NCBI GenBank assembly: GCA_945859975.1 | Contig: CAMAPH010000061.1 | Location: forward strand, 1-12,620 | Direction: 5' to 3' | Length of the DNA stretch: 12,620 bases | Source of the DNA: Chthonomonas calidirosea | GTDB taxonomy: Bacteria; Armatimonadota; Fimbriimonadia; Fimbriimonadales; Fimbriimonadaceae | Part shown: piece by piece, positions 11,702-12,186 of the stretch | Layout: every line of letters starts with the position of its first letter | Position numbering within the stretch: the stretch's first letter is position 1 | Translations under genes and position numbers: made by a program | The notes under the pieces: generated by a model | The model's input: only the letters and a program-made list of their open reading frames with translations | Told to the model about the DNA's origin: nothing | The model's database searches: none

Positions 11702-11746
11702 CGCTTTGTGTTGCTTTGTGTGGCCTTGAATTGCCTTGTGTGGCTT
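11702..11746. repeat. Left arm: about 4.5 tandem 10-bp units, inverted relative to 12142-12186
   Basis: (t)cgctttgtg ttgctttgtg tggccttgaa ttgccttgtg tggctt; consensus about TKGCYTTGTG. Confidence 0.9.
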
Positions 11747-12126
11747 CAGAGTTTGCGTTTGGTGCTGACGAGGTCGTTCTCGACTTTCGTCGCAAGATTT
11801 CTCAGCTTGACGCCGAGAGCGGTTGAGCTCGTGAGCATCGTGTCTCGGTCTGGTTCTGACACCATATCCAGATCGCTCGAAATGCAAAACAAGGTTTCAA
11901 CCTCGTTCAACGATCCAAGAGCAATCCGGAGAAACCTGAGAAACTCCGCATCGGAATCTCTGCCCGCTCCTTCCGCTATGTTGGATGGAATTGAAACGCT
12001 TGCTCGTCGAATCTGGCTAGTCAGTCCGAACTGCTCCTCTCTCGGGAAGCGGCTCGTAACTTCATAGCACTGCACAGCGAACTCTCGTCCCAATATCCAC
12101 ACCTCTAGCTTTCGAAAATCTCGCAC
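11746..12126 (-). CDS. Four helix bundle protein (23S rRNA intervening-sequence protein family, PF05635/TIGR02436)
   Basis: Family signature FRKLEVW...FPREEQFGLTSQIRRASVSIPSNIAEG.GR....F.RFL.IA.GSL.E.ET; GTG start. Confidence 0.93.
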   Translation of the reverse strand: MRDFRKLEVWILGREFAVQCYEVTSRFPREEQFGLTSQIRRASVSIPSNIAEGAGRDSDAEFLRFLRIALGSLNEVETLFCISSDLDMVSEPDRDTMLTSSTALGVKLRNLATKVENDLVSTKRKL

Positions 12127-12141
12127 CTTTTTTAGCTACTC

Positions 12142-12186
12142 AAGCCATGCAGAGCCATTCAAAGCCATGCAAGGCTACACAAAGCG
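12142..12186. repeat. Right arm: about 4.5 tandem 10-bp units, inverted relative to 11702-11746
   Basis: Reverse complement reads cgctttgtg tagccttgca tggctttgaa tggctctgca tggctt, 35/45 identical to the left arm without gaps. Confidence 0.9.

Follow-up and report, generated by a model that had tools for sequence, protein, structure and literature searches.

A PF05635 four-helix-bundle gene enclosed by inverted copies of a dispersed tandem repeat forms an exchangeable cassette between groES and groEL, with a putative role as an IVS-type element of mRNA

We analyzed a 12,620-nt stretch of Chthonomonas calidirosea DNA (contig CAMAPH010000061.1; this whole stretch is called the window below) and found a small cassette lodged whole in its groES-groEL (groESL) operon. 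A PF05635 four-helix-bundle gene lies between two inverted copies, or arms, of a genome-resident repeat module with a 10-nt period. Our best explanation is a promoterless cassette of the intervening-sequence (IVS) type that is co-transcribed with the operon and whose arms form a putative RNA stem, a reading to which we assign a probability of about one half.

The PF05635 gene, groES, and groEL are all encoded on the minus strand, in a window that also carries nusA, infB, and genes for a carboxyl transferase, a phosphoesterase/beta-propeller protein, and an adenylate cyclase. In operon order, the parts of the locus are:

12525..12579, minus strand: promoter-like site TTGACA-18-CAAAAT with two inverted repeats, 5' of groES
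12193..12483, minus strand: groES, 96 aa, the operon's upstream gene (Pfam Cpn10, 1.1e-33)
12139..12186, minus strand: 5' arm (operon sense), a G-rich 10-nt-periodic array with five GCyTTG cores; inverted copy of repeat module A
11746..12126, minus strand: PF05635/TIGR02436 four-helix-bundle gene, GTG start, 126 aa, stop included
11702..11749, minus strand: 3' arm, the C/A-rich complement of the 5' arm, overlapping the stop codon; copy of repeat module A
11665..11701, minus strand: spacer from the 3' arm to groEL; contains AAGGA (11676..11672), which resembles a Shine-Dalgarno sequence
10039..11664, minus strand: groEL, 541 aa, the operon's downstream gene (Pfam Cpn60_TCP1, 1.6e-77)

When recomputed, the arms had the geometry given in an earlier note on this DNA. 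Positions 11702-11746 and 12142-12186 are complementary at 35 of 45 positions in an ungapped alignment, with a perfect outer 10 bp, and each contains ~4.4 copies of a 10-nt tandem unit (about 4.5 in that note). The left arm contains the stop codon (11746-11748), and 15 nt separate the right arm from the GTG start. Extended to 11702-11749 and 12139-12186, the arms match at 37 of 48 positions, and the pair reaches z = 16.5 against shuffled flanks. Removal of the 485 nt from 11702 to 12186 reduces the 528-nt groES-groEL spacer to 43 nt, as the note had calculated; its description of this remainder as an ordinary spacer fits less well, since naturally empty spacers of the genus are shorter (14 nt in the closest relative). 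On the groEL side, at least 15 nt next to the start codon (11665-11679) are common to the other filled alleles; for the X2 allele this extends to 26 nt (as far as 11690).

A scan of 11500-12620 placed the sole promoter-like site on the operon strand at 12579..12550, 5' of groES, and identified no promoter-like or terminator-like site on that strand within the cassette. The Shine-Dalgarno sequence of the four-helix-bundle ORF is poor. Two ~27-nt inverted repeats surround the promoter-like site (12525-12579) and resemble CIRCE, the heat-shock operator found in groESL operons.

The cassette is a real insert that is gained, lost, and swapped as a unit among near-identical genomes, with boundaries at the arms. 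A complete genome (G014), 96.9% identical to the window across 11.7 kb, has an empty site: its groES and groEL, 97–99% identical to those of the window, are separated by 14 nt from stop to start, a spacer that contains no repeat array, and there is no PF05635 gene anywhere in this genome. The last groES codon and the stop codon differ between the two sequences, so the replaced segment spans the end of groES to the start of groEL, slightly beyond the arm-to-arm piece. In another genome (G045), groES and groEL flanks that are 96–97% identical to those of the window enclose a different cassette, whose DNA cannot be aligned between the flanks, whose protein is 47% identical to the window's, and whose arms are built of another 10-mer; the few bases that lie outside the arms are nevertheless common to this genome and the window's own (G000) on both sides. 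Lake-water sequencing runs contain further alleles. Two RNA-library contigs join groEL and groES by the empty spacer of the G014 type, one RNA-library contig joins the two genes with 474 other letters in between, representing another cassette, and one DNA contig joins them with 461 other letters. In these lake-run alleles, homology stops within ~12 nt of the outer ends of the arms. Contigs cannot show single molecules, so the bridging RNA-library contig gives a weak hint of co-transcription. Among the four runs analyzed (three of RNA, one of DNA), none covers the window's cassette; in a wider run search, most of the window is present only in its probable source run, X1 (0.99 of the sampled words, versus at most 0.36 in any other), and as X1 is not among the four, the missing coverage carries no weight. 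The earlier note had proposed that repeat arms and a four-helix bundle make up one unit that sits in operon spacers, and had called for an empty site in close relatives. The G014 site, the junctions at the arms' outer ends in the other alleles, and a unit that is present, absent, or replaced whole among close relatives bear this out.

Divergence is not raised near the junction (identities of 97.1% in groES and 98.6% in groEL versus 96.9% over the window), and these flat values led us to reject elevated junction divergence as a recombination trace. A candidate target-site duplication, CTGAA, occurs on both sides, 25 nt from the right arm; we rejected it because it lies in a stretch common to the X2 allele. 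Measured against transposons and MITEs, the cassette has inverted arms, no direct repeat at its flanks, and no transposase or integrase encoded within the window, in keeping with what had been noticed before.

Inverted arms also surround most other members of the family. We searched 46 genomes of the genus at E ≤ 0.001 and obtained family matches in 35 of them (0–11 per genome); the flanks of 90 genes were collected. We compared the 200 nt upstream of each gene with the reverse complement of the 200 nt downstream, using shuffles as reference and z ≥ 5 as threshold. Arms were present at 50 of 71 testable genes of the short type, versus 7 of 232 windows shifted by 420 or 650 nt. An independent broad set of 80 loci, eight of them untestable, was drawn by means of a 9-row alignment from Bacteroidota, Planctomycetota, Verrucomicrobiota, Acidobacteriota, Chloroflexota, Cyanobacteria, Proteobacteria, and others; here, 49 of 72 testable loci had arms versus 0 of 137 shifted windows. 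Relatives within these counts are not independent of each other. The enrichment that had been predicted for the flanks of PF05635 genes is therefore present in both sets, and inverted arms around the gene are shown to be the typical layout of the family across phyla.

The arms follow common rules despite a unit sequence that varies from locus to locus. Both arms have the same period at 74 of 82 loci. Period 7 is the commonest, in 26 of 41 periodic arms of the broad set and 29 of 39 in the genus, and the window's period of 10 is rare. The commonest number of units per arm is 4 (medians, 4.1 and 4.4), and it does not depend on the period between 7 and 9; a constant unit number and a constant stem length fit these data alike and are not separable. 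The 3' arm begins a median of 9 nt past the stop codon, and the 5' arm ends a median of 25–34 nt before the start. The 5' arm has more G than C at 42 of 50 loci in the genus and 43 of 49 in the broad set. A G-quadruplex in the G-rich arm was considered and rejected, because four G3 tracts occur in just 12 of 100 arms and in neither arm of the window. One cassette lineage (L082, L093, and L094, in genomes G056, G004, and G018) has an 8-nt palindrome, GCGATCGC, within its arm units.

Might a vertically inherited small gene simply have come to sit between two resident intergenic repeats? The repeat is common enough in the intergenic DNA of this genome (27 array loci, described below), and the groESL residents form just two clusters in a protein tree, as such a history would have it. 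Against chance flanking stand the arms at 49 of 72 family genes from many phyla versus none of 137 control windows, the fact that the cassette is the only inverted pair of its module in the genome, the absence of the gene from a 97%-identical genome, and the 47%-identical replacement between flanks of 96–97% identity. The controls and the empty site already contradict this explanation, and we consider it very unlikely.

The arms are two inverted copies of a ~45-nt repeat module, here called A, that is dispersed in the genome. Counting arrays of at least three units, the genome contains 26 of type A, with four GCyTTGnnTG units and a conserved end, and 12 of type B (GTTCGGnTTn). Together they occupy 27 intergenic loci, as expected of a dispersed repeat family with many intergenic host sites, and an identical scan of 1.77 Mb of shuffled sequence returned none. 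Module A arrays are mostly unpaired, the cassette being the sole inverted A pair, and array orientation relative to genes shows no bias in this genome. Pattern matches per genome, counted as overlapping windows rather than loci (reversed-pattern controls, 0–1), are:

G000 (the window's genome): type A 61, type B 18
G014 (empty site): type A 62, type B 29
G045: type A 34, type B 22
G023: type A 0, type B 13
G008: type A 0, type B 37

By these counts, each groESL cassette has arms of a type that also resides in its genome. The empty-site genome, which lacks family genes altogether, retains A and B arrays that are as common as in G000. Arm units of two cassettes recur in G003 and G056 in far more windows than there are family genes, with one control high in G004. 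The arms are thus shown to be taken from, or to feed, a resident repeat family. At three places in the window's genome (G000:C57:4552-4708, C1:163861-164017, and C8:80026-80120), two direct copies of module A flank a small hairpin with an AT-only palindrome of the TAATTAATTA type and thereby constitute another class of small repeat element using module A.

The groES-groEL site itself has a varied set of occupants. Among 23 genomes of the genus whose spacer was read, six have a short armed PF05635 gene, one of them fused to a further domain (265 aa). Seven encode an armless protein of 260–325 aa with an N-terminal four-helix bundle and a long Arg/Gly/Pro/Asp repeat tail. Three have gene-less spacers of 85–140 nt, and seven have short, empty ones. 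In seven genomes from other genera of the order, the spacer measures 24–93 nt and the gene is absent. The family search added four more armed occupants (G045, G042, G041, and G057). The fused protein (G008, L009) consists of the four-helix bundle and a C-terminal domain of ~140 aa. One of the gene-less spacers (G015, L008:1764-1848) is an 85-nt hairpin with four 8-nt repeats per arm (-27.7 kcal/mol, z -5.3), either a cassette remnant or a gene-less relative. The armless long forms (L005, L015, L018, L020, L022, L023, and L025, in G002, G003, G004, G011, G009, G016, and G018, respectively) make up one clade (SH-aLRT 99) beside the window protein; this form seems to descend from the cassette and to have become fixed, and possibly domesticated.

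We placed 87 genus proteins in a tree of 125 columns, built by a quick method that leaves many forks unresolved. The groESL residents fall into two clusters, of 20 rows (SH-aLRT 94) and five rows (SH-aLRT 90). The larger cluster unites the window protein, the G042 protein, a trio with B arms (G008, G023, and G045), and all tail-bearing forms. The nearest relative of the window protein, from G042, is 62% identical and has A-like arms, and arm type follows protein subclade, A-like with G000 and G042 and B with the trio. Because the residents cluster by site, we regard these lineages as site-faithful, though they are far more divergent than their flanks. Family genes occupy other recurrent positions as well. 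G021, which has a PF05635 gene in its main groESL operon, has an armed one (L090, G021:C34:18303-19814; z 7.4) ~80 nt upstream of a second groEL paralogue. A second recurrent site places the gene divergently upstream of one neighbor gene in G049, G053, G052, and G011 (L037, L038, L048, and L054). The first three of these loci are armed (z 6.8–8.2) with differing arm units and do not cluster in the tree; L054 has no arms (z 0.3) and was not recovered in a later scan.

We next consider the level at which the arms act. In a 541-nt sense RNA, the arms close the minimum-energy fold (-200.7 kcal/mol, z -5.9), and the antisense RNA folds nearly as well (-187.2 kcal/mol, z -4.7). A stem selected as RNA usually shows enrichment of G·U pairs. 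Among the non-Watson-Crick positions of the arms, read as sense RNA over the genus and broad loci, G·U-type mismatches number 80 (53 + 27) and A·C-type mismatches 120 (74 + 46). The wobble signature of an RNA stem was thus not found, and the lack of a G·U excess gives no sign that selection on the sense RNA maintains the stem. The two arms also change independently. Their copy numbers are weakly correlated (r = 0.30), an indel of five heptamers (35 nt) separates one close pair of loci in the 3' arm but not in the 5' arm, and at another locus a variant unit has expanded in the 5' arm without being mirrored in the 3' arm, bringing complementarity down to z 1.3. The missing wobble signature and this independent slippage point to complementarity that arises from DNA-level copying, not from long selection on RNA pairing, and they are the main reason why our confidence in the IVS-type reading is not higher.

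A comparison of G009 with G018 reveals how the arms may serve at the DNA level. Flanks 96.4–98.6% identical enclose an interior that is inverted and 86% identical (dS 0.74), and the alignment continues into both arms before it breaks. Since the breaks fall inside the arms, cassette interiors are exchanged and flipped through them, and we rejected exchange via groES/groEL homology alone, which does not account for an inverted interior with such breakpoints. The order in which the G-rich arm comes first is unaffected by interior inversion and may therefore belong to the arm pair as such, whichever strand is read.

Could the arms act on DNA only, as recombination or insertion handles (landing pads) derived from the dispersed repeat, with RNA pairing as a functionless by-product? 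Such a role agrees with the absence of a G·U excess, with two strands that fold alike, with the inversion and exchange breakpoints, with arrays that far outnumber cassettes in G003 and G056, and with an arm family that matches each genome's resident arrays (A in G000; B in G045, G023, and G008, the last two of which have no A). It sits poorly with the orientation of the cassettes. Where the neighboring genes are co-directional, the family gene follows them at 43 loci versus 4 in the broad set and at 24 versus 12 in the genus. Neighbor orientations were read heuristically from long open frames in the flanking DNA, and gene starts likewise rest on simple heuristics. The co-orientation bias, strong in the broad set, fits a promoterless gene that needs host transcription. 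The cassette's lack of its own promoter and terminator is another point against a purely DNA-level role, as is the empty site of G014, where the absence of an array means that no landing pad pre-existed, and published rRNA IVSs are processed at just such stems, going by the portion of PMC4990558 available. We regard this alternative as possible, though on the unlikely side. The IVS-type reading, for its part, has to accommodate evidence against a purely RNA-level role: no G·U excess, arm repeats that persist in a gene-less relative, and DNA-level breakpoints in the arms.

The 126-aa protein belongs to PF05635 (1.3e-34; 119.1 bits, cut-off 33.8) and TIGR02436 (1.3e-32; 112.3 bits, cut-off 24) and is the only PF05635 member encoded in its genome. 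Its predicted structure consists of four helices in a bundle (pLDDT 97). The best structural match of the model is XCC0516 (PDB 2gsc; TM 0.88/0.95, rmsd 1.2), followed by BT_0352 (2rld), Avd (4dwl; TM 0.74/0.86, 9% identity), and a diversity-generating retroelement (DGR) ribonucleoprotein (8ub7). These matches to 2gsc and 4dwl agree with the earlier note, which had assigned the protein the fold shared by the S23p proteins of rRNA intervening sequences and by Avd. Its net charge is -1; family medians are 0 for the genus and +2 for the broad set. No match was returned by PADLOC or PHROGs, and we rejected a defense or phage family on this basis. Close pairs of family genes give dN/dS values of 0.155, 0.049, 0.025, and 0.034, so the gene is kept by strong purifying selection.

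The fold match to Avd raises the question of whether the protein is the accessory protein of a DGR. Like Avd of Bordetella phage BPP-1 (4dwl, 8ub7), it has a four-helix-bundle fold and pentameric relatives; Avd itself binds an RNA stem-loop adjoining its own gene. Unlike Avd, it has no template/variable repeat partner in these genomes and is not positively charged, and the two are just 9% identical. A reverse transcriptase is missing both from the window and, as RVT_1, from all five genomes searched (G000, G014, G045, G003, and G056), even though the last two contain 11 and 9 family genes, respectively. Without a reverse transcriptase, it is not a DGR Avd; the five genomes already contradict that assignment, which we find scarcely credible.

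A different idea takes its cue from the same relatives. A putative pentameric ring of the protein might bind either the imperfect stem or, in the form of RNA or single-stranded DNA, some 4–5 units of an arm of its own cassette, and thereby control its own expression, stem processing, or module spread; TRAP-like wrapping of repeats offers an analogy. The closest solved relatives, 2gsc and 2rld, contain five chains each. The available part of a preprint (bioRxiv 10.1101/2023.10.23.563531) describes Avd as gripping an RNA stem-loop with all five protomers through the same residues. The unit count per arm (mode 4, median 4.1–4.4 for periods 7 to 9, and five cores in each window arm), the correspondence of arm type with protein subclade, and the purifying selection on the protein are all consistent with such self-recognition. 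A preferred stem length of 30–38 bp explains the unit count equally well, however, and co-inheritance alone can explain why arm type follows clade. The protein is not basic (-1 in the window; medians 0 and +2), and the arrays of G014 persist without any family member. We therefore hold self-recognition to be doubtful as an account of the arms.

The closest published parallel to the IVS-type cassette comes from rRNA. In the accessible text of PMC4990558, the Coxiella burnetii IVS, located in helix 45 of 23S rRNA, has a 28-bp terminal stem that encloses an S23p ORF and is cut mid-stem by RNase III, and tandem heptamers that vary in number between strains; ORF-bearing 23S rRNA IVSs are also named there for Leptospira, Brucella, and Xanthomonas. 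We thus found the gene-plus-hairpin architecture already in print for rRNA IVSs. The cassette shares with them, as far as that text describes them, an S23p/PF05635 ORF in the loop of a long stem made by terminal inverted repeats, a promoterless position inside a host transcript, short tandem repeats of variable copy number on the 5' side (heptamers in Coxiella), and a size of ~430–490 nt. It differs in that its host transcript is an mRNA (the groES-groEL spacer) rather than 23S rRNA, and in that its arms consist wholly of tandem units, copies of a genome-dispersed repeat. Its ORF is under purifying selection, whereas the same text describes that of Coxiella as decaying, and RNase III excision is shown there for rRNA IVSs and is putative for the cassette. 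Terminal inverted repeats enclose the ORF, with the 37/48 arms closing the minimum-energy fold; the gene lies between groES and groEL instead of in an rRNA helix, and no Rfam family matched within 11500-12620. Because it is outside rRNA, we do not count the cassette as an rRNA IVS.

The arm module also resembles REP/BIME and MITE repeats in being short, intergenic, multi-copy, and mosaic, and in having gene-less hairpins of like build (G015). It differs from them in that the modules are internally tandem (units of 7–10 nt), are mostly unpaired, lack target duplications, and enclose a conserved gene.

Under the IVS-type reading, the groES promoter would read through the cassette, and the G-rich 5' arm would pair with the C-rich 3' arm in the transcript to form a ~48-bp imperfect stem. 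This stem would loop out the ORF and bring groES close to the groEL ribosome-binding site. By analogy with the 23S rRNA IVSs, it would be a likely substrate of RNase III, whose gene is present. The arms may double as short DNA homology handles for cassette exchange. Rho prefers C-rich, G-poor stretches, and the G-rich-arm-first polarity may prevent the unpaired exposure of a C-rich, Rho-attracting stretch before its partner exists.

We found no description of this architecture in mRNA spacers, or of its link to dispersed tandem arrays, in the full-text literature, a coverage from which subscription journals are mostly absent. What the locus adds to the published rRNA IVSs is a near-isogenic empty site and arms that are copies of a dispersed module outliving the gene; a negative wobble test and a G-first polarity that belongs to the arm pair; breakpoints of exchange and inversion that fall within the arms, together with site-faithful lineages that include the armless tail-bearing form; and strong purifying selection on the protein in the absence of a reverse transcriptase.

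At one site in an essential operon, these genomes provide a natural series: presence and absence of the cassette at 97% identity, other cassettes, an interior that was flipped or exchanged, a hairpin without a gene, and a fixed form that has a tail and no arms. PF05635 is a large family with, to our knowledge, no known function outside DGRs, and we know of no explanation for the short, mostly 7-nt tandem arrays of bacterial intergenic DNA. The groESL locus links the two. If such cassettes are processed out of mRNAs, the rRNA IVSs would represent a single habitat of a far more widespread element. A bolder proposal, which we think rather improbable, is that the four-helix-bundle protein and the tandem arrays are one putative self-recognizing system, in which a protein ring reads about five arm units and governs transcript processing or the copying and exchange of modules; if it were true, thousands of short tandem arrays in bacterial intergenic DNA would be its footprints.
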